A stretch of 63,661 nt of DNA, counting the filler, from Craspedostauros australis (Eukaryota): NCBI GenBank assembly GCA_030167865.1. It is 13 parts of 13 records of this genome, joined end to end, with 100 filler letters (N's around TTAATTAATTAA, not from the genome) between each part and the next. Parts side by side here need not be neighbours in the genome. Positions count along the whole stretch, not along the records: positions 34,598 to 42,421 come from JALAGF010005148.1; 12 more parts are not named here. One strand, given 5' to 3'. This document shows positions 9,401-52,272 of the stretch, piece by piece. The notes beneath the pieces are model-generated. The model saw nothing but the letters and a program-made list of their open reading frames with translations. It ran no database searches and was not told where the DNA came from. A program made the position numbers and the translations under genes. Position 1 is the first letter of the stretch. The number at the start of each line of letters is the position of its first letter.

Positions 9401-9647
9401 TGGATGGTCCGAGAGGTTCATCCTTCACCACCACGGCATCCGCAGCTTGGAGGTAAAAGTTCCCGTAGCCCTTGCGATCAGCGCGGGTGAGGAACTTAGC
9501 GCTCCATGCGTTCCAGTTGGACTTCTTTCCGTCGAACACGATGGGGTAACGATCGGACTTGCCAAANANGGAGCTCATGATGATGGTGGTGGTAAGGGTG
9601 ATGGCGAGTGTTGCTGTGCTGATGGTGGTAGAAACGTAGGATTTCAA
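6476..9647 (-). mobile_element. Ty1/copia gag-protease ORF interrupted by a solo LTR
   Basis: Gag with two CCHC knuckles (CRNCGIYGHKKADC, CKFCGKTGHKILQC) and protease WLGDSGASCH. Removing 7667-8460 plus one TSD copy joins ...VMLC/HEI... in frame. Confidence 0.9.
7667..8460 (+). mobile_element. Solo LTR (family C) with 6-bp TSD CACAAC
   Basis: TGT...ACA termini; CACAAC at 7661-7666 and 8461-8466; homologous copies at 34418-34497 and 60832-61564. Strand is nominal. Confidence 0.9.
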
Positions 9648-9665
9648 TCGTAACGTTTCGAAACA

Positions 9666-11124
9666 TGTTGGAAATCCGGGGTTATAGATATAGTCTAATG
9701 CTCATTAAACTGTACCGTTTTAGAACTGTGAGAACAACATACTCCTTTCTCAAATCGTCAACTCGTTTGCCCATGATGATGCTGATGGCCTCCTGTAGTT
9801 GCCCCTCATGATCATCATTGCAGTCTCTCTCTGTCATGTCCATTTCATTGCTCATGACAAGTGCATTTCACCATGCTCAGCTGTTGAGAGATCGGTCTAC
9901 ACTCCTGAGGTGCATGCATGCCAATGCTCGATTCACTCTCTTCTCATCAGACATTCATCACTCATTCAGTGCACTCTTCCGTGTTGTTCACTCACTCTTC
10001 TCACATGTTCACCAACAATCACACTTGCTCAGAACATGGNNNNNNNNNNNNNNNNNNNNNNNNNNNNNNNNNNNNNNNNNNNNNNNNNNNNNNNNNNNNN
10101 NNNNNNNNNNNNNNNNNNNNNNNNNNNNNNNNNNNNNNNNNNNNNNNNNNNNNGTGATAGCGTTTTCGCATAGATGTTTCAGGTTAACCGGTCAACCCTC
10201 ATGCTTGGAACACTTCGGTGTTCCGGTCTCCCTTTCACATCCATCATTCGCCACACCAGTTTCGTCAATCCACTCAAACCATGTCTCACGATTAGTCTGT
10301 CCGTCGTCCGTCATACTCTTGACACACAGGGGAGGAGGTCCACCATAGACTTGGGAGCGTGTCCGACTTTGATAGATCGGTCAGTCTAATTTTGGTATTA
10401 TGGGAGGTGCGGCAATCTAGGATAATACNNNNNNNNNNNNNNNNNNNNNNNNNNNNNNNNNNNNNNNNNNNNNNNNNNGGCCTCCTGTAGTTGCCCCTCA
10501 TGATCATCATTGCAGTCTCTCTCTGTCATGTCCATTTCATTGCTCATGACAAGTGCATTTCACCATGCTCAGCTGTTGAGAGATCGGTCTACACTCCTGA
10601 GGTGCATGCATGCCAATGCTCGATTCACTCTCTTCTCATCAGACATTCATCACTCATTCAGTGCACTCTTCCGTGTTGTTCACTCACTCTTCTCACATGT
10701 TCACCAACAATCACACTTGCTCAGAACATGGGGTTCTGGCACGATCAGTCCAGTCCTTCGATGCTGTTGCAGTCCGCGCTTTGTTCTCCTTCGCTGGTTC
10801 TCTGTCAGTCACGTAATCATGTTCTGGGTTCCAAGCGACTCAACTGTGATAGCGTTTTCGCATAGATGTTTCAGGTTAACCGGTCAACCCTCATGCTTGG
10901 AACACTTCGGTGTTCCGGTCTCCCTTTCACATCCATCATTCGCCACACCAGTTTCGTCAATCCACTCAAACCATGTCTCACGATTAGTCTGTCCGTCGTC
11001 CGTCATACTCTTGACACACAGGGGAGGAGGTCCACCATAGACTTGGGAGCGTGTCCGACTTTGATAGATCGGTCAGTCTAATTTTGGTATTATGGGAGGT
11101 GCGGCAATCTAGGATAATACAACA
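9666..11124 (-). mobile_element. LTR (family A), about 770 bp, largely duplicated across an N gap
   Basis: Minus strand starts TGTTGTATTATCCTAGATTGCCGCACCTCCC and ends CCCCGGATTTCCAACA; these terminal motifs are shared with 12800-13543 (both ends) and 42780-43131 (3' end). Confidence 0.75.
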
Positions 11125-12799
11125 TATTCGCACCCTCGATTCCTGACATCGATGACGTATTTGATGATACGATGCATCTCCTTTGTGGCTGCTAGAGTCG
11201 GTCCGTCTGGCACCTTGGTCAATTCTCTGACTGGGTTGGCGATGTCCGGCCGTGAGTGCTTGATGAGAAACAGCAGCATCCCCACGCCCTTCCGGTAGTT
11301 CGCGTGGTCGGCCTCGTTCACCTTCTCAAGGCCATTGGTCTCTGATGGTCGAACAATTCCTTGGTTCGGTGTACCTGGTGTGTTGTAGCATTGAAGCTTG
11401 CTCACTGCTTCACCAAACTCTGCGATCAGGTTCTTGATCAGATGCGGTTGCCGAAGGACGGCCTTGGTCTTGTCGGCGTTCAGCTCGATGTTGCAGCTGA
11501 GGTAGTCGCCAAGTCCTCGTTCGATGGTCACACCAAACTTGCTCTTCTGGATGTTGGTAAGGAAGGTCTCCATTGCTTTCTAGTCTCCGCAACAGAAGCA
11601 ATCGTCCACGTAGATGGCGACGATCACTGTTCCTTCATTGGTGGATTGGTGGAACAAGCATGGATCCGCTGGGCTCTGGTTGAATCCGATGTTCTTGAGT
11701 GTGGCGACGAGTAGCTTGTACCACTGTCACGCGCTCTGGACAAGCCCGTAGATTGGCTTCAGTAGGAGGAGTGCTTCCTCTCTGGTAATGTCCATTCCTT
11801 GTGAGCAGTTCATGTATACCTCCTCTTCCAGTTCACCATGAAGGAAGGCGCCAACGACATCGACCAGTGTGCAGTCCATCTGCTTCAGCAGCGTGACCAC
11901 CATCATAATTCGATAGGTGATGTCGTGGATCACTGGGGAGTGGTGCTCTTGGTAGTCGATTCCTCCGATCTGCGAGTATCCGCATGCCACAAGTCTGGCG
12001 CGGTACACGCCATTCCGCTTGAGCTTGAACACCCATTTGCATTTGCAGCATCGTCTGTCACGAGGGATGGCGGATCTCTTGATCTTCCTGTAGACACCCC
12101 GATCGATCATGGACTTCAGCTCTTTCTTGATTGCGGCTCTGAATCCATTTCGGTGTTCTGCGATTGGGTGGTGGTATGCTTCGTTGAACGTATTCGGTTC
12201 GGTGTATTCTGTTGGATGGTCTTCACTTGTCATACCGAATTCCGTGGTAGAGTCATTCGTGTAGACTGCGTTGTTGCCGTATAGCGCGTCGATAATTGCG
12301 CTGCCTGAGTCTAGTTGTTCCGGTGGTTCGTCTTCGGTGGTAGTTTCGTCGTTCTTGGTCTCGTCTCCCTCAGTTTCGCTCTTATCATCATCCTCCCTTC
12401 CTGCTTCGTTGTCTTCGTCATCTGAGTTTGATGTTTCAGATCTTGCATGGTCGCTATTGAACACAGAAAGGTTGCTCGAGAATTGCTTGCCTGGAATGTT
12501 GTGGCTGGTGAGTTTCTTGAGCGCGTTCCGAGTTTTCACATTCATTTCTTCTGGTGTCTTCTTCACTGGACGGGGTCCCTTCCTGCTGCGTGCTTGGTGG
12601 CGTCGCATCCGTTCAGTTCTCTTGATGTCCTGCTTCCTTGGTCTTGGCGGAGCTGTGATCGTTGGCGAGGTGTTTGCTGGTTCCTCGGCATTGTCAACTC
12701 TCAGTTGCTTTCTTGATGCAGTTGGTGTGCGGAGAATGCTTGGTGGAGCTTTGGTGCTGGCATTCTCTTCATCTGTGTTAGGAATTGAGGGTACGACTT
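11125..12799 (-). pseudogene. Ty1/copia reverse transcriptase fragment
   Basis: KWVFKLK...RARLVACGYSQ, DVVGAFLHGEL, IYGLVQSA and YVDD (11601-11612); in-frame stops; bounded by LTRs on both sides. Confidence 0.92.
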
Positions 12800-13543
12800 T
12801 GTCGGAATACCCGTGATTGCCGCACCTCCCAACATTATTCGTCACAGCTTTGAATATTATTCGTCACATGTTCGGAGACTATTTGTCACACCTTTGCATA
12901 CCATGTCATTATGACTATGACTAAGGGTACGGACGTGATTGACACCTGTACTACCGCAAGGAGGATAGCCTGTCCTCCAGTAACGCAAGGACGACACCTA
13001 TGGCGGATCAGGAGGTCCCAATACCAAGCCAACCATGGCAACCATCCAGACGACGACGTCGATCAGAACAGCAAGTCCATGGGCAAGTGACGCACCCTCT
13101 TCAGAGGACAGCACGCGCCCCTCCTGCGGACAAGAACATCTGCAGGTTTGGAACATCAGAAAAGATCAGAACAGCCGCAGGTTTGGAACATCACCAAGGC
13201 TGACATCGATCGTGGGACGATGGCGTCATGAGATCAACGACGGAAACATGAGATAGGCAAGTGCTCAGGACTGCAGATCCCTACCATGCAAGCGTAGACA
13301 GCTACAACGATGCAGAGGCAAGCAACATCAATGCCAAGACAAGGAAGCAAGAACAGAGCATGATGAATGAAGAGAGAAGCACCTAAGAGACAACACGACG
13401 CCCCGTGTCGCCACCGCGACAGATGCCTACCATGAGAAATGAAATCGGAAGAGAAAGTGAGATTGTGCTCACAGTTCTAAAACGGTACAGTTTCTAACAG
13501 CGGATTAGATTACAGTACTAACTATAACCCCGGATTTCCAACA
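12800..13543 (+). mobile_element. LTR related to family A, without matching TSD
   Basis: TGTCGG...GATTGCCGCACCTCCC start and CCCCGGATTTCCAACA end; flanks CGACTT and AATCCT differ. Confidence 0.75.
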
Positions 13544-34497: not shown

Positions 34498-34602
34498 NNN
34501 NNNNNNNNNNNNNNNNNNNNNNNNNNNNNNNNNNNNNNNNNTTAATTAATTAANNNNNNNNNNNNNNNNNNNNNNNNNNNNNNNNNNNNNNNNNNNNGCT
34601 AC

Positions 34603-34863
34603 CTGTAAATCCAGAGAGAGGGAGAGAAGAGAGAAAGAGAAGAATCATGTTAGACATGTCGATTGACACGAGACATAACAATGAAGGGAGGGAGTGATGT
34701 ATGGGTGTATGGGTGTATGGGACAGAGCAGTCCGACAGCGACAGTGACAGTGACTGACGATGGTAGCGTAATGAATGCTAGTGTTGGTCACTGTCAAGTG
34801 CTTCATGTGCTTCGTCCCTGGTCCCCATTTTGATGTGTAGATCAGATCAAATGAATTAGTCGC

Positions 34864-34865
<2 letters not shown>
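34603..34865 (-). other. Spliceosomal-type intron in LSU (263 nt, GTGCGA...CAG)
   Basis: Excision restores CTCTCTTAAG|GTAGC; CTAAC at about 34649-34653 and a pyrimidine tract before CAG. Confidence 0.85.
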
Positions 34866-34903
<38 letters not shown>

Positions 34904-34905
<2 letters not shown>

Positions 34906-35132
34906 GTAGTTTCAGTAGTGAAATAGTAATTGAATAGAGTAGANNNNNNNNNNNNNNNNNNNNNNNNNNNNNNNNNNNNNNNNNNNNNNNNNNTAGAGTG
35001 AAAGAATTGGGTTAGATATCATGTTCATGTAGCGGTAACAGTAGTGGGTGCAGATTCTGCTTGGATCGGTCGATCATATCATGCATAGTATGATATAGAT
35101 AGAAAGGGAAGGGAGGAAGGAGATTGACGTAC
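34904..35132 (-). other. Spliceosomal-type intron in LSU (GTACGT...CAG, internal N gap)
   Basis: Excision restores CAACCAAG|CGCGGG. Confidence 0.88.
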
Positions 35133-35167
35133 CTTGGTTGAATTCCTTCACTTTGACATTCAGAGCA

Positions 35168-35312
35168 CTGTTGGTGTAGAAGTAATAATAGGTAGAGCAA
35201 GTAATGAGAGGTAATGAGGGGTGATAAGTTGTGAGAGGGAGTTTTCCAATTGATCGTGATTTGATCGTGGTTGTGATTATCCGTGCAGTTTGGAGCATGT
35301 CGGTGCACTTAC
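35168..35312 (-). other. Spliceosomal-type intron in LSU (145 nt, GTAAGT...CAG)
   Basis: Excision restores CTGCCCAG|TGCTCTG. Confidence 0.9.
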
Positions 35313-35377
35313 CTGGGCAGAAATCACATTGCGTCAACACCGTTTCCGGCCATCGCAATGCTTTGTTTTAATTAAAC

Positions 35378-35484
35378 CTGTTATTGCAATGGGCAATGAG
35401 CAATGAATATAGGTGTGTATGGGGATAGTGATAAAGTAGTAATACGAGTTAGGGGTAATGATTGTGTGAGATGTTGTCGTCGTG
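35378..35484 (-). other. 3' part of a spliceosomal-type intron in LSU (5' end in gap)
   Basis: Non-rRNA sequence ending CAG directly before GTTTAATTAAAAC; CTAAC near 35448. Confidence 0.7.
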
Positions 35485-35750
35485 NNNNNNNNNNNNNNNN
35501 NNNNNNNNNNNNNNNNNNNNNNNNNNNNNNNNNNNNNNNNNNNNNNNNNNNNNNNNNNNNNNNNNNNNNNNNNNNNNNNNNNNNNNNNNNNNNNNNNNNN
35601 NNNNNNNNNNNNNNNNNNNNNNNNNNNNNNNNNNNNNNNNNNNNNNNNNNNNNNNNNNNNNNNNNNNNNNNNNNNNNNNNNNNNNNNNNNNNNNNNNNNN
35701 NNNNNNNNNNNNNNNNNNNNNNNNNNNNNNNNNNNNNNNNNNNNNNNNCC

Positions 35751-35938
35751 CTGTAGTTGCAAAGAGCAAGGGCAAGAGTAATAAGAGTAGTGGTGAAAGT
35801 GAAGGCAGAGTGGAGTGAAGTGGTTCATGTGTGAGTGCGGTGATTCATTGGGTATTACATTGTTTCGAGCGTAACCTCGGTCCGTCTGTCCGTCTGTCTG
35901 TCCGTCCATCCATATGTATATCTCCAAAAGGTACGTAC
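35751..35938 (-). other. Spliceosomal-type intron in LSU (188 nt, GTACGT...CAG)
   Basis: Excision gives GTAGATAAG|GG, as in conserved GATAAGGGAAGTCGG; only 2 nt of the downstream exon are visible before the gap. Confidence 0.82.
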
Positions 35939-36558
35939 CTTATCTACATTCTTCTATCGACTAGAGGCTGCTAACCTTGGAGACCTGATGCGGTGATGAG
36001 TACGACCAGGGGTGCGAATAAGACACGCCACCGGGTTTTCAAGGGACGTCGAGAGCGCACCGAAACAGTCAAAAAGTAACCGCCTTTCCCAGATCGTCAA
36101 CCCTATCTCCGGTCAATCCGATTCCAGGGTCGATGCATCTGTTAACAAGAAAAGAAAACTCTTGTCGGGGCTCCCGCCGTCGTCCCNNNNNNNNNNNNNN
36201 NNNNNNNNNNNNNNNNNNNNNNNNNNNNNNNNNNNNNNNNNNNNNNNNNNNNNNNNNNNNNNNNNNNNNNNNNNNNNNNNNNNNNNNNNNNNNNNNNNNN
36301 NNNNNNNNNNNNNNNNNNNNNNNNNNNNNNNNNNNNNNNNNNNNNNNNNNNNNNNNNNNNNNNNNNNNNNNNNNNNNNNNNNNNNNNNNNNNNNNNNNNN
36401 NNNNNNNNNNNNNNNNNNNNNNNNNNNNNNNNNNNNNNNNNNNNNNNNNNNNNNNNNNNNNNNNNNNNNNNNNNNNNNNNNNNNNNNNNNNNNNNNNNNN
36501 NNNNNNNNNNNNCACTTCAGTCTTCAAAGTTCTCATTTGAATGTTTGCTACTGCCACC

Positions 36559-36791
36559 CTGTAATTCGAAAAGAAGAGGTAGAGTAGAGTAGTAGAGTAG
36601 AATAGAGTAGAATGGAATGGAATGAAAAGGGTGTGGTGTGTGAGTTGGATGTGTGTTGTATATTGTATATTGCGTGATGTTATGACATGCACGTGTCTGA
36701 GTCTGAACAACGCAATGATAATTGCATTGTATTGTTGCGTTGCGTTGCGTTGCACTTGGTGATAAGTGTATTAATTTAATTTGGTACTTAC
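36559..36791 (-). other. Spliceosomal-type intron in LSU (233 nt, GTAAGT...CAG)
   Basis: Excision restores GCAGATCTT|GGTGGCAG. Confidence 0.9.
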
Positions 36792-36957
36792 AAGATCTGC
36801 ACCGAAGGATGTTTCACTCTGGCTCACGCCACGAGCTGCACGACAACCTTCGCGCCCTCCTACTCACCAACGCGAAACACTTGCGCTGGTGGTGGAGTAT
36901 AAGTGGCCCGCTTCAGCGCCATCCATTTTCAGGGCTAGTTCATTCGGCAGGTGAGTT

Positions 36958-37154
36958 CTGTGATATTGAAGAGTGAGATATGGTATGCGAATAGGATAGA
37001 ATGGAATAGAATAGAGGGGAGAATGGGTGATATGTGAGATATGGTCATGATTGGGTTGATTAGTTGGCATTCTGTCCGTATGGGTCTAGGTGCATCTAGG
37101 ATGCCATTTAGTTGCTATTTGTTTGTTTGCTTGTTTGCTTGTTTGTTTACTTAC
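36958..37154 (-). other. Spliceosomal-type intron in LSU (197 nt, GTAAGT...CAG)
   Basis: Excision restores GTGTGTAAC|AACTCACC. Confidence 0.9.
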
Positions 37155-37197
37155 GTTACACACTCCTTAGCGGATTCCGACTTCCATGGCCACCGTC

Positions 37198-37368
37198 CTA
37201 TTAGGATAATAGTGGAGACAAGATTCAAGATTGAAGGCGATGGCAAGTTTCGTAGATACAGAGAAGGGAGGGGGTTAGTTGGTGTGTCAGTTGGTCTGTC
37301 TGTCCGTCGGTCGGTCGTCTCATGATCTGAAGATCGTGTTGTCTTGTCTTTGGCTTCGTTTAACTTAC
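37198..37368 (-). other. Spliceosomal-type intron in LSU (171 nt, GTAAGT...TAG)
   Basis: Excision restores GACAGCAG|GACGGTGG; ACTAAC branch-like site near 37274-37279. Confidence 0.9.
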
Positions 37369-37450
37369 CTGCTGTCAATATGAACCAACACCTTTTGTGG
37401 GATCTAGGTGAGCGGGCACTTTGGCACTTTATCTCCACGTTCGGATCATC

Positions 37451-37490
37451 CTGTGGTCGTATGAGTGAGTGTGAGTGTGTGAGTTGAGAG
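37451..37490 (-). other. 3' part of a spliceosomal-type intron in LSU (5' end in gap)
   Basis: CTCAC repeats then CAG before GATGATCCGAACG. Confidence 0.65.
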
Positions 37491-37824
37491 NNNNNNNNNN
37501 NNNNNNNNNNNNNNNNNNNNNNNNNNNNNNNNNNNNNNNNNNNNNNNNNNNNNNNNNNNNNNNNNNNNNNNNNNNNNNNNNNNNNNNNNNNNNNNNNNNN
37601 NNNNNNNNNNNNNNNNNNNNNNNNNNNNNNNNNNNNNNNNNNNNNNNNNNNNNNNNNNNNNNNNNNNNNNNNNNNNNNNNNNNNNNNNNNNNNNNNNNNN
37701 NNNNNNNNNNNNNNNNNNNNNNNNNNNNNNNNNNNNNNNNCAGAACCTCTAATCATTCGCTTTACCTGATAGAAATGATATTCGATTGCAGCTATCCTGA
37801 GGGAAATTTCGGAGGGAACCAGCT

Positions 37825-38429
37825 CACAGTATGGAATAGATAGAAGCGATGCATGCAACCCATGTTGACACGATGCGTTCATTTATTCCACAAGTTCGCA
37901 TACCAAGTGCGTCACTCCATGCGTTATGCATTATGCATTATGCATTGGAGCAACCTGACAAGACGGAAGTTTCTTTGTCTTCCTGCCTTAGTCATTCATT
38001 TTCACTTCCCTGTGCATTCACCTTACGGGGGTTCTTGCACAGAGCACACTTTGTCATCGTGTGGGGTTAGCACGTCCCTTAAGGCGGCTGGCAGTGCTGA
38101 CAAGCAGACACAGCCAGACCACCCGATGTCTTTGCGCGCGTTACGACGGTCACACCCGAGATCGCTCTCGGAGGACTCGCCACGGGATCAGCCACGATAA
38201 TGTATACATACATATATACAGATATACATAACGTTTGACGGCCTTCCCCGTACCAGATCATCTCGCCAGTGGTTACCCCGTAAGAGTATGTACAACCACG
38301 TTGACTAGCAGGTTTTGTTTTATTGATAAGATGAGTTGGGAGCAACCATCGAACAGACTCGCAGTGAACGTACATACATNNNNNNNNNNNNNNNNNNNNN
38401 NNNNNNNNNNNNNNNNNNNNNNNNNNNNN

Positions 38430-38461
<32 letters not shown>

Positions 38462-38588
38462 TTATATACATAAGCACGTCTCTGCGAGAATCCCACTTTT
38501 TCTAGCAGCAGGTTCCCTGTCCACGGACAGCAGCAGCAGCAGCGTAAATTGCCATTGCCACCGTCCGCGTCCTTTCGTTTCCTTTTCT
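37825..38588 (-). ncRNA. Group IE self-splicing intron in LSU at AUCUAGU|AGCUGG
   Basis: 5' exon ends in U and intron ends in G. Core motifs GGUACGGGGAA, AUCCCGUGGCGAG, GUCGUAACGCGCG, UAAGGGACGUGCU. IGS AACCUGCUGCUAGA (38501-38514) pairs with both exons. Confidence 0.9.
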
Positions 38589-38644
38589 ACTAGATAGTTC
38601 GATTAGTCTTTCGCCCCTATACTCAAATTTGAAGATCGATTTGC

Positions 38645-39421
38645 CTCAAGTTACATGTGCACGCACACGCACGCGCACAAACAAACACACGCAAATGTAT
38701 GTATGTGTCTATGTGTCTATGCGTATGTATGTGTGTGTGCACAACCCCTCTCCATTTCTAGAGAGGCCGGACTATACCTTAAGCCAGCAGGCAGGCAGAC
38801 AGACAGACAAGCAACATGTTACGAGTTACAAGTAAGTAACAAGCAATTGTTGCTGTTGCTGTTGCTGCTGTTGCCACACTGGCCCATTACCATCTAGTCT
38901 CTGAACCTTCCTCTTCGACTCGACTCGACTCGACTCGACTCGACTCGACTCGTATCGTGTCGTGCCAAAGAGGCTTGGATGCGGATCGTCCATTGTATCA
39001 TCTTTGAAGCTGTTACCATACCCTAGGTCATTACCCCGGCCCCATGCATGTCGCCATGATCATGGTTGGTGTTCAAAGTTTTAGGATGTCCCCGCAATTT
39101 GGCAATGTCGCACCATTCAGCAGTCAGCAGTCAGCAGTCAAGTTGTGTGTATGCATGAATGGTACTAGCTTCCCTTTCGGGTCACTTTTCGACGCGCAAA
39201 GCATCGATCTTCGCCTCATGATTTGCAATCAAGTGAAAGTGTCATGAGTCGCACCAAGTTGGCATAATGTGGATGATGCTGATAGTGGTAGTGATAGTGA
39301 TACATACACTGGTATTAGACAGATGTCTATACCTGTATTGTATCTGTATATCATACCGCATCATTCACACTATGTCGACTGGCACTTGCTCTTGATGTAG
39401 TGGATTGTGGTTGTTTGTTTC
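38645..39421 (-). ncRNA. Group IC1 self-splicing intron in LSU at CUGACGU|GCAAAUC
   Basis: U/G boundaries; P AAUUGCGGGGA, Q AUCCGCA, R GUUCAGAGACUAGA, S AAGGUAUAGUCC. P3 (AUUGCCA/UGGUAAU), P4 and P7 (GACUA/UAGUC) can pair. Confidence 0.92.
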
Positions 39422-39491
39422 ACGTCAGAATCCCTACGAGCCTCCACCAGAGTTTCCCCTGGCTTCACCCTATTCAAGCATAGTTCACCAT

Positions 39492-39620
39492 CTGTTGGTG
39501 TAGTTATTGTGGGGGTAGAATAAGTGGAAAGTAGAGAGTAGAGAGTAGGTAAAAGGTAAGTAAAGGGAAAGTGTGAGTTGTTGTTTGTTATCATTTGTTG
39601 TCGTTTGTTGGTGGCGTGTT
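39492..39620 (-). other. 3' part of a spliceosomal-type intron in LSU (5' end in gap)
   Basis: CTCAC, pyrimidine-rich tract, then CAG before ATGGTGAACTATGC. Confidence 0.72.
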
Positions 39621-39840
39621 NNNNNNNNNNNNNNNNNNNNNNNNNNNNNNNNNNNNNNNNNNNNNNNNNNNNNNNNNNNNNNNNNNNNNNNNNNNNNNNN
39701 NNNNNNNNNNNNNNNNNNNNNNNNNNNNNNNNNNNNNNNNNNNNNNNNCGGATTGTGCAAATATCCAACCACTGTCACTTTCATTGCGCATGGGAGTTTG
39801 CCACTCCTATACTCGCAGTTTTGTTAGACTCCTTGGTCCG

Positions 39841-39953
39841 CTGTAGTGCAAGAGAGCAAGGTAGAGTTGTAGAGTTGTAGAGTTGTAGAGAAGGAAAGAG
39901 GAAGAGAGATGGGTTGTCGTTAGTGGAATGAAGTTTGTGCAATGTGATGTGGT
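39841..39953 (-). other. 3' part of a spliceosomal-type intron in LSU (5' end in gap)
   Basis: CACTAAC, pyrimidine-rich tract, then CAG before CGGACCAAGGAG. Confidence 0.72.
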
Positions 39954-40668
39954 NNNNNNNNNNNNNNNNNNNNNNNNNNNNNNNNNNNNNNNNNNNNNNN
40001 NNNNNNNNNNNNNNNNNNNNNNNNNNNNNNNNNNNNNNNNNNNNNNNNNGGCAACGGAAGTCAACTCCTTCCGCGCCCTTCCGAAAGATCCAACCAACCG
40101 TGACTACAGCCAGCCACAGCGCCCAAGCCGCAAGCGGATAGGGAAATATGACAGAGCAGACACTGGTTTCCTTCGCTTCCCTTTCAGCAATTTCAGGTAC
40201 TCTTTAACTCTCTTTTCAAAGTTCTTTGCATCTTTCCCTCACGGTACTTGTGCGCTATCGGTCTCCCACCAATATTTAGCTTTAGATGGAATTTACCACC
40301 CGCTTTGAGCTGCAATCCCAAACAACTCGACTCTTTGACATGTAGTGTGTGTATGTTGTGTGTATGCATATGCATATATGTGTGTTCCTATTAGGCGTAC
40401 GGGAGTCTCACCCTCTCAGCTGCCCTGTTCCAAGGGACTTGGCCAGATTGGACAGATAACCATCGTTCAGCACAGTACAGTAAAGTACAGTAAACTGACC
40501 GACGATTCACATTAACGATTGGCTACAGTCTATAGACCACAATTCGGTGCAGTGCCGTCAACAGGCAACAATACTACTACCAGTAATAGTGATAGTAGTG
40601 ATACCGGTTGGACGGTTCGTGCACAGATTTACATCTTGAGCTTATCCCGCTTCAGTCGCCCTTACTAG

Positions 40669-40701
<33 letters not shown>

Positions 40702-41208
40702 ATTATATGCTGTGAGGGTAGGAGTAAAGTGGAGTGGAATGATGTGGAATAGAGTGGAGTGGAATGAAGTGTGAGTGGTGTGTCGGAGGGAAGTTGGTGC
40801 ATTCTGTTTCGTTCATGCTTCCCTAGTGGCAATCAAGAGTGATGGAGAAAACAAGTGAACAACCAGCNNNNNNNNNNNNNNNNNNNNNNNNNNNNNNNNN
40901 NNNNNNNNNNNNNNNNNATGTGTGTTCCTATTAGGCGTACGGGAGTCTCACCCTCTCAGCTGCCCTGTTCCAAGGGACTTGGCCAGATTGGACAGATAAC
41001 CGTCGTTCAGCACAGTACAGTAAAGTAAAGTAAACTGACCGACGATTCACATTAACGATTGGCTACAGTCTATAGACCACAATTCGGTGCAGTGCCGTCA
41101 ACAGGCAACAATACTAGTACCAGTTATAGTAATAATAATGGCGCCAGTTGGACGGTTCGTGCACAGATTTACATCTTGAGCTTATCCCGCTTCAGTCGCC
41201 CTTACTAG

Positions 41209-41241
<33 letters not shown>

Positions 41242-41249
41242 ATTATATG

Positions 41250-41456
41250 CTGTGAGGGTAGGAGTAAAGTGGAGTAAGGTGGAGTGGAGTGGAATGATGT
41301 GGAATAGAGTGGAATGAAGTGTGAGTGGTGTGTCGGAGGGGAGTTGGTGCATTCTGTTTCGTTCATGCTTCCCTAGTGGCAATCAAGAGTGATAGAGAAA
41401 ACGAGTGAACAACCAGCGGTGTCGCTGTGATTGCGCGAGATATTCGATTGACGTAC
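41250..41456 (-). other. Spliceosomal-type intron near the LSU 5' end (207 nt, GTACGT...CAG); variant partial copy at 40710-40867
   Basis: Excision restores GAATTTAAG|CATATAATTAAGCGGAGG. Confidence 0.9.
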
Positions 41457-41495
41457 CTTAAATTCGGCGGGTCCTCTTGCTTGAGCTGAGATCCG

Positions 41496-41915
41496 GAGTG
41501 AAGATACTATCATCGCACTACATACATAGTACATGGTACGGTGACAGCAGACCTGCTCCATTAGTGCCGAAACGCCAGATACAGCACTCCAAGACCAACA
41601 ACCATGTGTAAGTGACATTACTTTAGTCGGGGGCAGAACCAAAGTCCTTTCCCTTCCATCTACCAATGTCGGTTGTTAGTGGCATGCATCCAGGCGCGTG
41701 TTCAGCGCAGATGGGCATAGATCACGTGACGTGTGAATGAATGGGAGCATTCATGAATAATGAATGCGCATTCGTTCGTTCATCCGTTTCATCGGAGCGA
41801 TCGCGGGTTAGGCGACTGCACTGACAAACTCCAACAGCCATGCCACAACAATGTCGTCGTCGGATAGACCGGCAGACAGACAAAAGAAAGGCATTAGCGC
41901 TGAGTGGGGTTCACA
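41496..41915 (-). other. ITS2
   Basis: Position between 5.8S and LSU; boundaries approximate. Confidence 0.85.
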
Positions 41916-42071
41916 GACACTCAGACAAGCATGCTTTCGGGAAGATCCCGAAAGCGCAATGTGCGTTCAAAGTTTTGATGATTCACGAGGTTTTGCAATT
42001 CGCATTACGTATCGCATTTCGCTGCGTTCTTCATCGTTGTGGGAACCTAGACATCCATCGCTGAAAGTTGT
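41916..42071 (-). rRNA. 5.8S rRNA (stramenopile/diatom-like)
   Basis: ACAACTTTCAGCGATGGATGTCTAGG...GATGAAGAACGCAGCGAAATGCGATACGTAATGCGAATTGCA...TTTGAACGCACATTGCGC. Confidence 0.97.
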
Positions 42072-42379
42072 ACTAGATTAGTTTTGTTAGCTGTCGCGCG
42101 CTCCCGTTCGCCGATCTGCGACTACTGGTAAAAGAAGGAGCGGATCGAGGCTCGCGGTATGCGCGCAGACAGTACCAGGTTTAGGTCTTGTTGTCATTTC
42201 TCGTGGTTTGTGGAAAATGTTCATCAAGTAAAGTGATAGTGAGTGATATCAATAGTGTTAATATCAGTATCAATATACACAATACAGTGATGAGCAATGA
42301 TCGGTTGTTCGACGCAGGCGGTTGTTACGCGCCGTTGTCTATTATTTCGCATGAGTGGTAAGATCTTGGATCTGTGCGG
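42072..42379 (-). other. ITS1
   Basis: Between the SSU 3' end and 5.8S. Confidence 0.85.
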
Positions 42380-42402
42380 TAATGATCCTTCCGCAGGTTC
42401 AC
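42380..42402 (-). rRNA. SSU (18S) rRNA 3' terminus
   Basis: GTGAACCTGCGGAAGGATCATTA. Confidence 0.95.
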
Positions 42403-42779
42403 CTGTAGATCGGAAGAGTAANNNNNNNNNNNNNNNNNNNNNNNNNNNNNNNNNNNNNNNNNNNNTTAATTAATTAANNNNNNNNNNNNNNNNNNNNNNN
42501 NNNNNNNNNNNNNNNNNNNNNTCATCCGTCAAACTCATCAGCACCACAAGCCTCCTCCATCAGTACAAAGGAGAGAACATCATCGTGGAAGCTACCAACA
42601 TCAAGCTGAGCGGTATCCCAGGAAACGAAGAACGAGGATCCATCGTCGCCCACAACCGGAAAGCAAATCGTCTTCCCACATCACGTGCCTACCGCACAGG
42701 CGACCTCTCCGACGTGCCAGCCGCGCTCANNNNNNNNNNNNNNNNNNNNNNNNNNNNNNNNNNNNNNNNNNNNNNNNNN

Positions 42780-43131
42780 GGTGAGTATGTGATGATGGCG
42801 CAGGAGGAATACTGAGGAACCGAAGGTCAAGTGGGATCGATCAGACTGAGACCCATGCTGAAGATACCTGTGCGTCTATGAGAGATGCTGCTCGAATGTA
42901 GAAGATGCAATCACCACGAGAATGCATGATGAATCTGCAGAAGAGAGCATGAGAGCAAGNNNNNNNNNNNNNNNNNNNNNNNNNNNNNNNNNNNNNNNNN
43001 NNNNNNNNNNNNNNNNNNNNNNNNNNNNNNNNNNNNNNNNNNNNNNAGAGTCAAGGAGTTTGTTCTCACAGTTCTAAATTGGTACAGATTGATAACAGAT
43101 TAATCTACTACCTAACCCCGGATTTCCAACA
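42780..43131 (+). mobile_element. 3' part of a family A-like LTR inserted in a copia pol gene
   Basis: Ends ACAGTTCTAAA...CCCCGGATTTCCAACA immediately before the HYRLGH codons. Confidence 0.75.
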
Positions 43132-45731
43132 GCACTACCGACTCGGGCACCTCTCCTTCCGACGTGTGCAATTTCTACTTCGATCAGGTGCACTCGTCAA
43201 CACCGAGGCATCACGAAAAATGCAAACAGCAGCCGCCCGTGTGCAGGAGTGCCCGCTATGTGCGGCATGCCAATTCGGCAAACAACACCGCAGACCTACG
43301 CCAGGCACAACACAGCACGCAATACTGGACCGACAGGGNGTGATCAAAACGGATCATCTCTTCCCTGGCCAACAGGTCTCCGTGGATCACTTCGTGGGAC
43401 GCACGCTGGGCCGCCTGTTCACTGGAAGGGGCAAATCCGACGCCTCGGAGATGTACAAGGGCGGAGCGATGTTTGTGGACCATGCATCAGGCTACATTCA
43501 CGTCGAACCTGTTGCGTCCCTCACCACTCATGCAACCCTCGAAGCCAAGACACGATTTGAGTCCATGTGCCGCGATGTGGGAGTACCAGTGCGCTCCTAT
43601 CTCTCGGACAATGCCACCACCTTCACATCTCCAGACTACACCAAACACCTTGAGCGCTTCCACCAAGTGCATCGTTTCGCTGGAGTCGGTGCTCACCATC
43701 ACAACGGAGTGGCTGAGCGGAGCATCCGCACCATCATTTCAATGGCACGCACAATGATGATGCATCAGAGCATTCACTGGCCGACGATGTTTGACGCACA
43801 GCATTGGCCCATGGCAGTCGTGCATGCAGCGTACATCCATAATCGAGTCCCCAACGCAGCCACCGGATTGACACCGATGGACATCCTGTCGCGTACTCGC
43901 ATCCCGCTGAAGCAGCTCCACAACCTTCACGTGTGGGGCAGCCCAGTGTACGTATTGAACAAAGCTCTCGGCGATGGTCGCAAGATCCCACGATGGGAAC
44001 CACGCGGAGAACGATACGTTAACATGGGTCTCTCCACCCGTCACGCATCAACGGTCCCCCTCGTGTTGTCACCACGGACAGGATCCATCACTCCGCAATT
44101 TCACGTCGTTTTTGACGACTGGTTCGCAACCATCGCAACCAACCCAAGCGACCTTCCCGACTACAACACCAATGAGTGGACCCACATGTTCGGCGATACA
44201 ACCTACCAAATCCCTTTCGACGACGAAGACATCATCGCCATGGAAGAAAGAGATATCGAACGTGAAGACGCAAACGATCACCGACGGTTTCACTCCATCA
44301 ACGATGCGCCGATGCCACCGCCATCATCAGGCGCGCAACCGGCACCCACGCGAACTCCGATCAACACAGATTCACCAGCTCACATTTTGGAACAGCCGTC
44401 GAAACCGGAAATGAACAGCGACACAACACCAGTCGATCAAGTGCAACCACCTCAACCAACCTCCCAACCAGCGGATACTGTTGAAGATCACACACGCACA
44501 CCACCAATGCCACCAACAGAGGGAGGCGAGGAGCCGAAAGAACGTGCCGTCACAACTCCGCCAAACCCGTTGCCACCAACAGAGGGAGCGACAAATGATG
44601 ACGAAAGTGGTGAAATGCCGATCGCAAGTGATTCCCCTCCAGCTTCGCCACCTCGTGAACCCATTCACGCGCCAACGAAAAGAGACAAGGCAAAATCATC
44701 CAAGCNACCTCCACTTCGCCGCTCGGAGCGTATCAACAAACGAGAGCCACGAGAACGCAAAACCGTCGAGCGACTCACCTACAACAAGTTAGGGGGCAAA
44801 GTCGTGTGGGCAGATGACGACACGGTACCCATTGAATCTAGCGCCAACGTGACAACTCAACACACAGGTAACCACAGCAAGACCCAAGCGGTACAGAGCA
44901 TGAAGAAGGTCCTGCAGGAGTNNNNNNNNNNNNNNNNNNNNNNNNNNNNNNNNNNNNNNNNNNNNNNNNNNACAGAGCATGAAGAAGGTCCTGCAGGAGT
45001 GCCGCCAGTCGCTAATGGAGTTCACGGAGCACCCTGACGACCAGGTAACACAAAAGGCCAAGGTCCTGGTCCGTGACGCGGAATCCATGCTCCGGAAAGT
45101 GAAAACCATCGATACCGAAGAGCTACGAAAGGACGAACGGCGTTGGGCGCAGGGCGACCTCGAAATGGAACGGATGCTGCGTGCAAGGCAGCTCGAGATC
45201 CGGGCCGAGATGCGCAGGGAACAAGAGGAGGCGNCGGCCGATGAAGCAACATCGCCGCATGAACACCACATCCTCATGATGAGCAACCAATCCGGCTCGT
45301 CCTCAGAGGACGACGACTCATTCCCCGGCCATACCATGGACCCCATCGATATCGGTCACCTGTGGCCGCACCACATCAACATCACTCGACACATCCGTCA
45401 CTACTTTGATCATGTGGTGCAGTTCCGATTCCCGACGGAAGCTGCAAGGAGCCAGTGCCTTTACTACGCCATCCGTAGATTTGTTGACGCCGTCGACGAA
45501 ATGCTCGAAACAGGTGAGTATCACCTCCCCGTCTCGTACTTCGGATTCATACCACGTGTACAAGGCCAACGGTATACCCTGGAACGAGCCATCGCGGCCA
45601 TGGAGAACGGTCTACGACCACCGGACGAAGATGAACGGGTACAGGATTTCATGCGACGAGCGGGCTTCGCGTGGCATCTCATCACGCATGACGAGCGATT
45701 TGAGATCGGAATACTTCACTTGCACATCCAG
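43132..45731 (+). mobile_element. Ty1/copia (CoDi-like) integrase and long linker
   Basis: HYRLGH...CAACQFGK zinc finger; SVDHF, YLSDN and NGVAERSIR DDE motifs; Pro-rich linker follows. 42522-42729 is probably the upstream part of the same pol. Confidence 0.92.
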
Positions 45732-47373: not shown

Positions 47374-48373
47374 TGTGCAGATTTAGTGCCAATTCCCGAA
47401 TCTGGCCGAATCCGAACAATGAGTGTCGATGGACAGACGATACCGCACAAACCACNNNNNNNNNNNNNNNNNNNNNNNNNNNNNNNNNNNNNNNNNNNNN
47501 NNNNNTTTGGAAGTAAAACAAAATGAATGGCTGTTGTTGGTTTGCGCCTGGAATTGGTATCTTTTGCCGGGACTGTGGGAACAGAATATTGTGCAGATTT
47601 AGTGCCAATTCCCGAATCTGGCCGAATCCGAACAATGAGTGTCGATGGACAGACGATACCGCACAAACCACGCGTAGGATCCACGTTGAGCAAATGACCG
47701 CTCCGCACAGTCATAATTTTCAGAACAGACAGGTTTCACCCCCCCCAACACCTCCGGTCACGTGAAAAACCTGCACACGCTTCCTCTGCGCAACGTGAAA
47801 CACGCGCTCTGATCGTTTCGTTTGGTCGCACGCACCAAAAACAACAACAACAACGAAACTCGAAGAGCGACCATGGCGGATCAAGGCAACCAACCCAACG
47901 ACGCCACAGCCGCAACCGCACCTGCAGGACAAGCAGCTGTGCAACCACAGGCAGCACAGCAACAGCCACAAGCAGGAGGACAGCCCATCACTCTGAACAT
48001 GGCACAACTCGTCCAAATCATCCAGCAGCAAGTGGCAGCACAAGTCCAAGCAGCAGCAGCAGCACAGCCAGTCGTCCAAGCCAATCCGAATCTGCCAGCC
48101 AACCAGCAACCAGCACAGTTTGCTGTAACACCATATGGATCCCTCATCGATCCAACAACCAAGACAGGCGCTGCTCTCATCAAGACAGCACAAGAGAAGC
48201 TCAGNGACGACAAGTTCGAAGGNGCTCCAGANAACATCAACGTCTTCCTCGCCAACATTCGCACTCGCGCGATGATGATGCAATGCATCGACATCTTCCA
48301 AGTCGCCACAACAACAGGCATGTACAACATCCTCGACAACTATCCACTCACCACCATCGACCATGTGCGCACC
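47374..48373 (+). mobile_element. Probable LTR (47374 to about 47731) and gag N-terminus (from ATG 47873) of an element inserted in the gypsy
   Basis: Gypsy ORF breaks at TGTGCAG; internal direct repeat; ORF FAVTP...IDPTTKTG...A.EKL..DKFE resembles diatom copia gag starts. Confidence 0.5.
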
Positions 48374-49655
48374 NNNNNNNNNNNNNNNNNNNNNNNNNNN
48401 NNNNNNNNNNNNNNNNNTTAATTAATTAANNNNNNNNNNNNNNNNNNNNNNNNNNNNNNNNNNNNNNNNNNNNATCCAACAAGCCGATCCGGCGCCAAAT
48501 TGGGACGTTTGCGCGGGGGCCTGCCGCCGCCCCAAATGAACCGCTCTTCCCGCCTCCGTTCGTCTACCCACCAAACGTTGCGTGGAGGTTACGGCGATGT
48601 GCTTGAATCTTGAATTGGCCGGCTGGTTGTTGCGGCGCCAAGCATACCGTTGGGCGGCCATTGTGGATGTTTTTTGGGTGTGGCTCCATTNNNNNNNNNN
48701 NNNNNNNNNNNNNNNNNNNNNNNNNNNNNNNNNNNNNNNNCTGGTTGTTGCGGCGCCAAGCATACCGTTGGGCGGCCATTGTGGATGTTTTTTGGGTGTG
48801 GCTCCATTTTCATGTTGGTGTGTCAAGTTTGCCACTCTCAACCGGCCTCGCATGTTGGGGGATGGGGAGATTTACCTCCAATTGTACCGACTGTCCAAAA
48901 AGACCACGACACAAAACACTCGAGGAGTACCAACCCCACTCAACCACTTCGCCACGACGAAGCAGACCTGATGNTGNTNCGCATCGNGNTNTNATTGGTG
49001 TTTCATGACGAAGTATCCAGTTTCGTGACGTCGATGACGGATTGGACAAGCACATGGTTGAATGCATGTAAACACAAATCTACCGCTTCTCCCCAAAACT
49101 CCACAACTAGTGCTATCGTGGAGGGACTGTTGGATGGTCTCATCCGAACACCTGAAAAAGAGACTAAACAATTCAAAATCGGAACAAAGTCGCTGAAACA
49201 AAGAACAGCAAAGGGTTAAATTGGATCGATGTAGTCGGATGTCAAAGGCTGAAACCCGAAAGAGATCGGAAAATGCGCATATCCATCGGTCCATAAAAGT
49301 TAAAATAGGATCTAACTCAAAAATGTAATGGTTAATTATGTGTATTAGACCTACAAGTATTATGAATATGTGCTTGGTTAGTATGTAGGAGAGAAAATTT
49401 CTGGAGGTCTATTTCAAACGATTGGTCGACTCACTGATCGGGCTCTTAGCATTGTACGTGTTTGCGCTTGTGGTGACGAAGGTCCTGGAGCACAGCAGGT
49501 AACACAACAACAGAGTTGAATTGAGTGGGGGTGATGTAATTGTATAGTGCTTCTATGATGTGATACGAGTTGGTAAGTATGAATGCGAGAATGAACAAGT
49601 CAATTGTTTCATCTCATGTCGGTGGGGTCAGTGCTGCCGTTGCTAATGCGCATCT

Positions 49656-50675
49656 CTACCCATGGAAGGAGATGCTGGAGATGACTGACTGCTCATCGTC
49701 CGAGCCATCGTTGCATTCATCCTCGTCGTTTGTTGGCAACGTCCGGGGAATGATGACGCTGGTGATCTTGCGCCGTGGGTGTGACGCCCTTGGTCGTTCC
49801 AGTCCCTGCAGCTTGCTCCTCACCGCCATCATGTCCGTGTGGCAGGATCTGCTCTTCTGTCTCTGCGTCTGCGGCTTCTTCGATCTGGCTGGTCGACGTC
49901 TTGAGCCCGATGCACCGTGCCCGCTGCTGCCGTTCGTGATGCTTCCGGCGTTGGTCTGATGTCTCTTGCCTGCTCTCGGTTTGCTTTGTCGTGATGATGA
50001 CAAAGCAGCATCGCCTCCACGAGGAGGCAAGGGCAGGGTGACGGATTGGATCCTCTGGCGCAGCGATTTGGATGCCTGCTGCTGCTGCTGTGGACTCGAG
50101 TTGTCATTGTCGCTTGCGTCGCAATCTTCATGATTCGATGAACGGTCGGTGCTGGGAGTCACGGGCTGTCGGCACGTGGGGCAGCTGCCGTGGCGCTTCA
50201 ACCATGGCTGCAGGCACTTGGAATGGCAGAAGTGACCGCATGGCATATAGGTCACGGTTTCATCGATCTCGAACAGCTCGAAGCAGATGGAGCATCCCTT
50301 GCAGCGCGTGGGCAGTCCCCGCAGCCGCACGACGACCAAGCCGCTCTCATCGGAGATCGACGGTGGCAGGGACGATGCCTGTGTTGGTGGTGATGCTGCG
50401 ACCTCCGGCGACTTGGAGCGTTTCCGTGGCGTCGAGGGTGACTTGTGATGATGCTTGACGCTGGAGCTCGTGCTGAGCCTCTTTGCGAGCATGGACTTGA
50501 GAATCCTGGCCTTCATTGCGAGGGGCTCCTCATGGCTGCGGTGAGGATCAATGATGACCGACGTTGGTTCTTCCTCCACGCCACCCACCCGGACGGAGGA
50601 TGCCGAGTTGCCATGTCTTGAGTCTCCGTTGGAGCCTCCACGGCGTGGTCGGGAGAGTGTCTTGAAGATGCCCAT
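49656..50675 (-). CDS. RING-H2 zinc finger protein (putative E3 ubiquitin ligase)
   Basis: CSICFELF...PCGHFCHSKCLQPWL...SCPTCR in a 339-aa Ser/Arg-rich ORF. Confidence 0.88.
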   Translation of the reverse strand: MGIFKTLSRPRRGGSNGDSRHGNSASSVRVGGVEEEPTSVIIDPHRSHEEPLAMKARILKSMLAKRLSTSSSVKHHHKSPSTPRKRSKSPEVAASPPTQASSLPPSISDESGLVVVRLRGLPTRCKGCSICFELFEIDETVTYMPCGHFCHSKCLQPWLKRHGSCPTCRQPVTPSTDRSSNHEDCDASDNDNSSPQQQQQASKSLRQRIQSVTLPLPPRGGDAALSSSRQSKPRAGKRHQTNAGSITNGSSGHGASGSRRRPARSKKPQTQRQKSRSCHTDMMAVRSKLQGLERPRASHPRRKITSVIIPRTLPTNDEDECNDGSDDEQSVISSISFHG

Positions 50676-52272
50676 CTTGCTACAAGCAGAGAGTGTCGTT
50701 GTTGCTGAACCGGATTTGACGGATGAGAGGTGTTGTTGTTGATGATGATGATGATGATGTTGATGCAGTTCGTGGAGTTTGTGAGATTTGTGAGGTTGGG
50801 CTGCTGTTTGTTCTCAGGTTCTTAAATTTGTGACTGCTTGGAGATTGGTTTGAGGAAGCATGGATTTGTGACCTGCGGTGATACAAAAGTGCGGCATCAC
50901 ATGCACAAACAGGAAGAGCTGGACACAAATACGCGCAACACGAACCACACAAGGAGATGATAGAGATGCAGAGACCGGCGTGAAGCATGAAGAGAGGGGG
51001 AGAGAGGAGTGGCTGACCAATGCTGTTGCTCTTCTCTCTCTGCCGTTTCGAGCCCAAAGCTCAAACTCGCGCGAACACGGCCACCAACAGTGTTCATGTG
51101 ATTATTAACCTACACCAGTGACAATGTTACCGCGCAAACAGGAAAGGGATCAAGGCGACAAGATTAATTGTCGCCATGCAACGGAACATCCCAACGAACA
51201 GCTTCTTATCGTTCTTCGGGGTAAAAACGAAACACCATTCCGGGTACAGTAATCGTGATTGATAGCCCCACCGGCACAGCACCTCCGCAACATCCTCCAC
51301 ACAACACTTTTGTACTTTGAACTCCTTCTCGTTTTGATGCAGCCTTGTCACACTCTGCCTTTCGTGCATTGCGCTACGCCCATCACTTATGAACCACGTG
51401 AGGGGCAATTGGTGAAGACCACAAGTTTTCGCACTTTTTCGCCTACCCCGTTGGACCTCTTGGATTTGGGGAAAGGAAGTGGAGTGAGAAACACTGGAGT
51501 TGTGACCTCGCATCGGCGTATGACTGTTTGGAGACAATGATATTTTCCCATCGCTGAATGAAATTGTGAGAGGGCTTTTTGATCCACCAAGGAACGCCAG
51601 CCACTGTGATCGTGACAAACCAGGATGCACATGAAACGGTTAAATCGGCGTTACAACGTGGACACAGGTGTCAACCAATCAGGTAGCAACAGCCACGTAA
51701 CTCAGCGTGCAAGAAGGTCTCCATAACACTCATAATCTGCGTTCTTACGCTTTCACAACACTTTTGGGTTTCATGCGTGTAATAACTTGGTTTATCATTC
51801 TCATCCGCTCAATAGAGCACGCGCTAACACGAGGGACTGCCTGAAGAGGCATCGAACACACTGGGGCACCGCTCTGAGGTTGAACCGTCATCAGCTGGCA
51901 CGGCTTGTACTGTGCTGTACCTCCTTTGACCATGATGTTCTGACACATGGTGGCCGGTGTCAGAGGGGTACAATCCTACCGTTCGCATTCGCGAGGTTAG
52001 GGTGACAATGGTGGACGCACCTACCGTAGGCCATACGGTGATTCCTACGAGGGCACTTGCTGTTTCTCTCAGCATGGAATCGTGTGAAACTCACCGACCC
52101 TGTGCTCCTCACCGTGGATCAACACCATGAATCAACACGCAGAATCCCCTTTTGGACGAAACACACGTTGTCCCAGTGTGTGTCTGTCAACAACAAAACT
52201 CGTTCTCTTTTTCTCGTTTTTCCTTTTCGCATCATCACTATCATACTCACTCTCGCACATAGCAACGACAAC

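Follow-up and report, generated by a model that had tools for sequence, protein, structure and literature searches.

Can a large subunit (LSU) ribosomal RNA (rRNA) gene which is cut at least 12 times by short introns of spliceosomal type be a genuine ribosomal gene, and by which route would such introns leave its transcript? The question is raised by one locus of Craspedostauros australis (assembly GCA_030167865.1), located in a stretch of 63,661 nucleotides (nt) which was analyzed as a whole and is called the window here. A eukaryotic LSU rRNA was recognized by Rfam on the minus strand of the window at 35959-40722 (526 bits) and 34808-35378, within a ribosomal DNA (rDNA) contig which occupies window positions 34598-42421 and whose rRNA sense is the minus strand. 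In this sense the contig runs from the last bases of the small subunit (SSU) gene through internal transcribed spacer 1 (ITS1), 5.8S and ITS2 into the LSU, which contains seven runs of N and is cut by the contig end near position 2330 of the 3401 positions of the Rfam model.

The original prediction had proposed that this LSU gene is split by at least 12 GT-AG introns of spliceosomal type, and the proposal passes the tests which were made at the DNA level. We consider it probable that the insertions are true introns of spliceosomal type in genuine rDNA units and leave the transcript by splicing. As far as it can be judged from sequence, the gene appears to be a nuclear rDNA unit of a probable diatom, and its LSU would carry at least 12 short, weakly structured introns of putative U2 type along with two longer insertions, G1 and G2. 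We infer that the intron-bearing units are transcribed, cleared of these introns by the spliceosome and used for the supply of ribosomes. G1, G2 and a doubled LSU 5′ end with its intron 1 were found in addition to what had been predicted.

Splice signals and shared intron architecture

The junctions of the LSU introns were located by script, and all of the eight insertions which had been described with two visible ends (I1, I5, I6, I7, I8, I10, I11 and I12; 145–263 nt) were found again and given coordinates (Table 1). GT stands at 8/8 visible 5′ ends, as GTAAGT in four, GTACGT in three and GTGCGA in one, and AG stands at 12/12 3′ ends, as ACAG in 11 and ATAG in one. The GT starts and YAG ends on the rRNA strand were therefore re-read as they had been reported, and the four further introns for which a YAG end alone is visible (I2, I3, I4 and I9) were found beside runs of N. 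By our own arithmetic, GT together with AG in 8/8 insertions is expected at about (1/256)^8 in the absence of selection.

The nearest AG upstream of the 3′ splice site is 100–155 nt away in the eight complete introns, and the four partial introns have no further AG within their visible part. The final 80 nt of the introns contain 1–10 G residues, and the final 60 nt are 63–77% pyrimidine in 10 of the 12 introns; the value is 42% in I11, whose last 60 nt overlap an N gap, and in I4, of which 40 nt are visible. The earlier description of a CTAAC or CTCAC element with a pyrimidine-rich tract is borne out, as CT[AC]AC, mostly in the form ACT[AC]AC, is present in all 12 introns and the tail is C/T-rich. 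The position of this motif was compared with shuffled sequence, for which the last 130 nt of each intron were shuffled; I4 with its 40 visible nt and I11 with its gapped tail were excluded. It lies at −95 to −60 in 9/10 usable introns, the mean of the shuffles was 2.24, and 0/2000 shuffles reached nine; in I12 the motif is at −51. On the exon side, AG ends the 5′ exon at 7/12 sites, five of them read directly and two inferred from relatives, the hidden exon ends before I2, I3, I4 and I9 being given by the relatives as ACA, AAG, CGG and ACT, respectively. Two structural classes were separated by folding, namely the short introns, which are weakly folded (−0.07 to −0.24 kcal/mol per nt; z from +1.8 to −3.3), and G1 with G2 (−0.35 to −0.37 kcal/mol per nt).

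These signals bear on the view that the insertions are removed without the spliceosome or without ligation, either as extra transcribed spacers which leave a fragmented LSU rRNA or by some other endonuclease and ligase route. Fragmented LSU rRNAs occur in some protists, which counts for this view, and so does the fact that splicing is argued here from DNA. The GT-AG ends, the branch-like motif at a fixed distance and the AG-free, pyrimidine-rich tail are however signals of the spliceosome and have no role in the processing of spacers, and the insertions are placed in segments of the conserved core and not in expansion segments. Removal by such a route is very improbable in our opinion.

An artefact of assembly, in which the insertions come from chimeric joins, or a foreign rDNA, in which the contig belongs to another organism of the sample, has also to be weighed. 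The assembly is poor, with N runs in the LSU and N50 gaps inside contigs which have the same sequence on both flanks (e.g., 48691-48740 and 47456-47505); these gaps are read as unmerged overlapping contig ends because both sides carry the same sequence. The rDNA contig has no physical sequence link to the other contigs, and at its end there is a 12-mer resembling an adapter. Against this, the eight insertions are located inside contig sequence with both exon flanks (I11 spans an N50 gap), and chimeras would yield neither GT-AG at 8/8 insertions nor a common tail architecture. The architecture moreover equals that of published diatom rDNA introns (PMC6306197). Artefact or foreign origin is thus very unlikely, and spliceosomal-type introns in genuine rDNA units are the reading which we prefer.

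The introns were also compared with each other. Pairwise scores are above a composition-only null in 22/66 pairs at z > 3, and in a multiple alignment of seven of the eight complete introns (I11 was left out for its gap) the likeness is limited to the signals and the low-complexity tail, the 5′ halves being unrelated low-complexity sequences. At E up to 0.01, none of the introns has a match on another contig of the window. Since the 5′ halves have no homology and no matches exist elsewhere in the window, the likeness is treated as a shared architecture for which common descent is unproven. A single proliferating (introner-like) intron family was considered and rejected, as the 5′ halves show no homology in the seven-intron alignment. 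I1 and I11 have identical first 11 bases (41456-41446 and 35132-35122), with no convincing likeness beyond them.

Relatives, condition of the gene and long insertions

Seven LSU loci (L001–L007) were retrieved from metagenome contigs with a 31-base exon string. They are insertion-free at every covered site, and the exons of the window map on them in order with consecutive exons abutting. When the exon flanks were projected on the covering loci, a gap of 0 was obtained for I5 (6/6), I6 (5/5), I1 (1/1) and I11 (1/1), and a gap of 1 for I10 (2/2), which is attributed to an exon indel. L001, the sole locus which covers I7, showed a projected gap of 19; as this was ascribed to indels in exon E7, the removal of I7 was judged from the abutting alignment pieces on L001. 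At the sites of I2, I3, I4 and I9 the covering relatives (4/4, 2/2, 3/3 and 3/3, respectively) have ordinary rRNA in place of the C/T-rich tail which ends CAG in the window. It had been claimed that precise removal restores conserved rRNA every time. This holds for I1, I5, I6 and I11 with gap 0, for I10 with gap 1 and for I7 by its abutting pieces, but “every time” does not extend to I8 and I12, whose 3′ exons are lost to a gap and to the end of the contig, respectively.

Several points weigh against the reading of these insertions as spliced introns of genuine rDNA. L001–L007 are unlabelled and possibly derived from RNA, so that they mark the continuity of the mature molecule and not intron-free genes; for the same reason they cannot show that related genes are without introns. 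The 5′ splice sites of I2, I3, I4 and I9 are inside assembly gaps, and that of I12 (GTGCGA) is non-consensus. The branch-like motif, which is presumed to be used as the branch site, is unusually distant from the 3′ splice site. The contig is part of a gap-ridden draft, its tie to the diatom-like contigs is their shared assembly alone, and the whole case is made from DNA.

The last point also counts for the view that the rDNA copies seen in the contig are pseudogenes or orphons, silent or degenerate, which have gathered insertions while the working units are intron-free. This view can further draw on Chaetocerotaceae, for which a few cases of intron presence/absence polymorphism within an individual are reported (PMC6306197). 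An excess of unique exon substitutions is however not seen, as in a three-way comparison with L003 and L005 as outgroups 14–17 unique changes were counted for the window vs 22–27 for the intron-free L001/L004, and with fewer unique changes than in these relatives the exons are not decaying. The 5.8S is intact, exons 5–7 align near the Rfam consensus, where posterior probabilities are high and broken pairs are few, and splice signals with the long AG-free tail are kept in all 12 introns, which silent copies need not keep. Taken at the sequence level, these observations argue against a decaying pseudogene. I1 is moreover present in two distinct variants, and the remaining contigs of the window are mostly retrotransposon fragments, which suggests that high-copy DNA alone was assembled and that the rDNA form found here may be abundant. 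We thus regard silent copies as improbable, and genuine intron-bearing units remain the preferred reading. Another measure of conservation, the agreement at reference-invariant columns (82%), was dropped because two of the references were partial and misaligned and three were near-identical, and the three-way comparison was used in its place.

The LSU 5′ end with intron 1 is present twice, on both sides of the N50 gap at 40868-40917, in copies with 96% identity, whose differences fall mainly on the D1 loop and the intron tail. I1 of variant B departs from that of variant A by three substitutions and by a rearrangement within its C/T-rich tail. The two copies are read as overlapping contig ends of two putative rDNA variants, both with I1. 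In the D1 loop (40600-40640 vs 41140-41180) there are about 10 clustered differences in a single expansion-segment hairpin, and the flanking core is identical. Sequencing runs sharing sampled words of the window were also listed, with one run at 0.56 and 16 at about 0.10–0.11, values which are not evidence of expression, habitat or copy number.

The two long insertions are of a different kind, and neither has GT-AG ends. G1 matches the group I intron model RF00028 with 68.2 bits (gathering score 50) over model positions 1-253 of 253, and it thus resembles nuclear group I (IC1-type) rDNA introns over the full model; the 12 short introns and G2 differ in giving no match to RF00028. The 5′ exon before G1 ends with T (39422) and the last intron base is G (38645), given the one-base sliding which the sequence allows. 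G1 is strongly structured (minimum free energy (MFE) z = −7.7) and is missing from L001 and L004. G2, with an N50 gap inside it, gives no match in Rfam at E up to 10; it is structured (MFE z = −4.3 and −4.2), missing from 5/5 covering relatives, and its ends likewise permit T before the insertion and G as its last base. We therefore assign the structured insertion G2 to no class; it may be a group I intron which has diverged. No homing endonuclease or other meaningful open reading frame (ORF) was found in G1 or G2. Matches to miRNA families at 38655-38745, in the 3′ part of G1 on both strands, were rejected as they fall on a CA/TG-rich imperfect palindrome and are far under the gathering scores.

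Table 1. Features of the rDNA contig in window coordinates, listed in rRNA sense
Feature	Position	Strand	Basis or remark
SSU rRNA 3′ end	42380..42402	-	sequence reading and position relative to 5.8S
5.8S rRNA, full length	41915..42069	-	Rfam RF00002, 163.4 bits, model 1-154 of 154
LSU exon 1 (LSU 5′ end)	41457..41495	-	adjoins exon 2 on relative L004
Intron I1, 207 nt, GTACGT...CACAG	41250..41456	-	gap 0 on L004
LSU exon 2, rDNA variant A, up to N50 gap	40918..41249	-	sequence reading, variant comparison
Intron I1, 3′ part in variant B, after N50 gap	40710..40867	-	aligned to variant A
LSU exon 2, variant B (D1 to D2 region)	40050..40709	-	Rfam alignment; BLAST to L001, L004
Intron I2, visible 3′ 113 nt, ends TACAG	39841..39953	-	5′ end inside N96 gap; rRNA sequence here in 4/4 covering relatives
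LSU exon 3	39749..39840	-	alignment to relatives
Intron I3, visible 3′ 129 nt, ends AACAG	39492..39620	-	5′ end inside N128 gap; 2/2 covering relatives
LSU exon 4a	39422..39491	-	alignment to relatives and flank projection
G1, group I intron, 777 nt	38645..39421	-	Rfam RF00028; core 38748-39230
LSU exon 4b	38589..38644	-	95% identity to L004
G2, structured insertion, 764 nt including N50 gap, not GT-AG	37825..38588	-	relatives, folding
LSU exon 4c	37741..37824	-	alignment to relatives
Intron I4, visible 3′ 40 nt, ends CACAG	37451..37490	-	remainder in N250 gap; 3/3 covering relatives; Rfam model ~1161|1162
LSU exon 5	37369..37450	-	alignment to relatives and Rfam model
Intron I5, 171 nt, GTAAGT...AATAG	37198..37368	-	gap 0 in 6/6 loci; Rfam model 1243|1244
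LSU exon 6, 43 nt	37155..37197	-	alignment to relatives and Rfam model
Intron I6, 197 nt, GTAAGT...CACAG	36958..37154	-	gap 0 in 5/5 loci; Rfam model 1286|1287
LSU exon 7	36792..36957	-	alignment to relatives and Rfam model
Intron I7, 233 nt, GTAAGT...TACAG	36559..36791	-	exons abut on L001; Rfam model 1452|1453
LSU exon 8, with N326 gap at 36187-36512	35939..36558	-	alignment to relatives and Rfam model
Intron I8, 188 nt, GTACGT...TACAG	35751..35938	-	2 exon bases visible after I8
Intron I9, visible 3′ 107 nt, ends AACAG	35378..35484	-	5′ end inside N264 gap; 3/3 covering relatives; Rfam model ~2139|2140
LSU exon 10	35313..35377	-	alignment to relatives and Rfam model
Intron I10, 145 nt, GTAAGT...AACAG	35168..35312	-	gap 1 in 2/2 loci (exon indel)
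LSU exon 11, 35 nt	35133..35167	-	alignment to relatives
Intron I11, 229 nt including N50 gap, GTACGT...TACAG	34904..35132	-	gap 0 on L005
LSU exon 12, 38 nt	34866..34903	-	95% identity to L005
Intron I12, 263 nt, GTGCGA...TACAG	34603..34865	-	5 exon bases, then contig end

Known rDNA introns and a possible mechanism

Bhattacharya et al. 2000 reportedly described spliceosomal introns in ascomycete rDNA, mainly that of lichen-forming fungi, and an article of Han et al. 2018 in J Phycol reportedly deals with the heterogeneity of intron presence and absence in the diatom Olifantiella sp. PMC6306197 cites Olifantiella (Han et al. 2018) as the other diatom report of spliceosomal introns in rDNA. 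In Chaetocerotaceae it counts 17 sites of such introns in 18S and a single site in a partial 28S, with up to 11 inserts per 18S alongside group IC1 introns. An insert of this family begins with a GTAAGT-type start, followed by a variable region, YTRAC, a C/T-rich region and a YAYAG-type end (PMC6306197). The arrangement seen here is rare, but its kind is already known in diatoms and fungi, and the original prediction had overstated its novelty, since diatom rDNA spliceosomal introns were published in 2018 (PMC6306197) and a yeast model has shown that RNA polymerase I (Pol I) transcripts can be spliced (PMC8527467).

The likeness to Chaetocerotaceae (PMC6306197) covers the short length of the inserts (about 96–199 bp there vs 145–263 nt here), a 5′ end which is mostly GTAAGT and also GTACGT, the same order of elements, many inserts per gene and the co-occurrence of group I introns. 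It also includes an intron in the primer site at the 18S 3′ end, as TACAG precedes the last SSU bases here; the standard reverse primer at the 18S 3′ end is interrupted by such an intron (PMC11007259). The difference is in the region and the ends. That study spans 18S and D1–D3 of 28S and gives a single 28S site, with introns ending YTAMAG (PMC6306197), whereas here at least 12 sites are distributed over about the first two thirds of the LSU and none of the introns ends YTAMAG. No insertion is present here at the position of the Chaetocerotaceae 28S site, a position which is itself our estimate.

For lichen fungi, PMC8527467 describes GT-AG introns in Pol I-transcribed rRNA genes beside group I introns, which is alike, and reports that all rDNA introns are removed from the mature rRNA in the fungus. 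They differ in belonging to another kingdom, in the length of the example intron (57 bp) and in their number (few per repeat). By that comparison the introns found here are three to four times longer and at least 12 of them share a single gene; their branch-like motif is distal, and their tail is long and poor in G. According to the same paper, yeast correctly removes a lichen spliceosomal intron set in all its rDNA copies from Pol I transcripts, and a single such intron slows its growth several-fold (PMC8527467). The action of the spliceosome on Pol I transcripts thus has experimental precedent, because yeast splices an rDNA intron (PMC8527467).

In the literature which was searched, no LSU gene of a diatom is reported to have many spliceosomal introns beyond D1–D3, although the deposited alignments of PMC6306197 may bear on the sites. 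Relative to the literature found, two things are new, namely at least 12 such introns in the conserved LSU core beyond D1–D3, and a branch-like motif which regularly stands about 70–90 nt before the 3′ end, together with a long AG-free, G-poor tail.

A mechanism may be proposed on this basis. The whole rDNA unit would be transcribed as pre-rRNA, from which G1, and perhaps G2, would be removed as a ribozyme-type intron. The 12 short introns would be recognized and removed by the spliceosome, with U1 binding at GTAAGT or GTACGT, U2 at the ACT[AC]AC-like branch site about 70–90 nt upstream of the 3′ end, and the long G-poor, AG-free C/T-rich tract leading from the branch site to the first AG. Ligation of the exons would then give a continuous LSU rRNA. 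In a stronger form of this proposal the whole rDNA array would depend on the spliceosome, with at least 12 splicings for each LSU precursor, and the introns would form a specialized class with an architecture tuned to splicing inside the assembling pre-ribosome. This class would be defined by a branch site kept about 70–90 nt before the 3′ splice site and by an AG-free C/T-rich tail in which G is depleted. This stronger form is tentative and seems to us rather doubtful.

Should the working rDNA consist of these intron-bearing units, each LSU rRNA would require at least a dozen spliceosomal events plus ribozyme-type splicing, an extreme load on ribosome biogenesis, and the published diatom cases would be extended from 18S and D1–D3 of 28S to the conserved LSU core. 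If the array is spliceosome-dependent, the diatom would provide a natural system for the study of the spliceosome on Pol I transcripts at a high intron load. The fixed distal branch-like motif with its long AG-free tail is a testable feature of intron recognition. Because the introns interrupt conserved primer sites of both LSU and SSU, rDNA barcoding of this lineage would be biased.

Contig end, neighbouring contigs and the organism

At the other end of the rDNA contig, 42403-42421 on the minus strand, 19 bases which are not rRNA precede the last SSU bases and end with TACAG as LSU introns do. Of these, 12 match the tail of a common Illumina adapter, so that the 19 bases may be left over from an adapter instead of marking a thirteenth intron. 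The TACAG site coincides with an 18S intron site of Chaetocerotaceae (location 19 in PMC6306197; PMC11007259).

The window consists of 13 small contigs which are chained by 12 linkers, each made of N44, a 12-base all-frame stop linker and N44, at window positions 2765, 6420, 16291, 28169, 30745, 32990, 34542, 42466, 45776, 48418, 55263 and 60776. On the contig adjoining the rDNA, a copia-type ORF is present at 42953-45037 on the plus strand. Among its 120 listed matches 10 bear the name of an organism, eight of them diatoms (Fragilaria crotonensis six, Epithemia one and Attheya one) and two labels of bacterial metagenome-assembled genomes, and the identity to the diatom matches is 42–60%. These matches support a diatom genome without proving it, and the earlier guess of a probable diatom fits with this retrotransposon, to which eight of the ten named matches among those listed are diatom. 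The search of a protein atlas with a 1066-aa ORF gave no taxonomic information.

Fragments of copia-type long terminal repeat (LTR) retrotransposons, with GAG-pre-integrase, gag and RVT_2 domains, are located at 42953-45037 (+), 8436-9701 (−) and 11727-12863 (−), and Pfam gave no match for most of the other long ORFs of the window. As a whole the window resembles the repeat fraction of a draft assembled at low coverage. A RING finger domain (PF13639, E = 1.5e-13) is encoded by an ORF at 49656-50813 on the minus strand, and, as judged by eye, an intron of about 190 nt may follow the end of this ORF.

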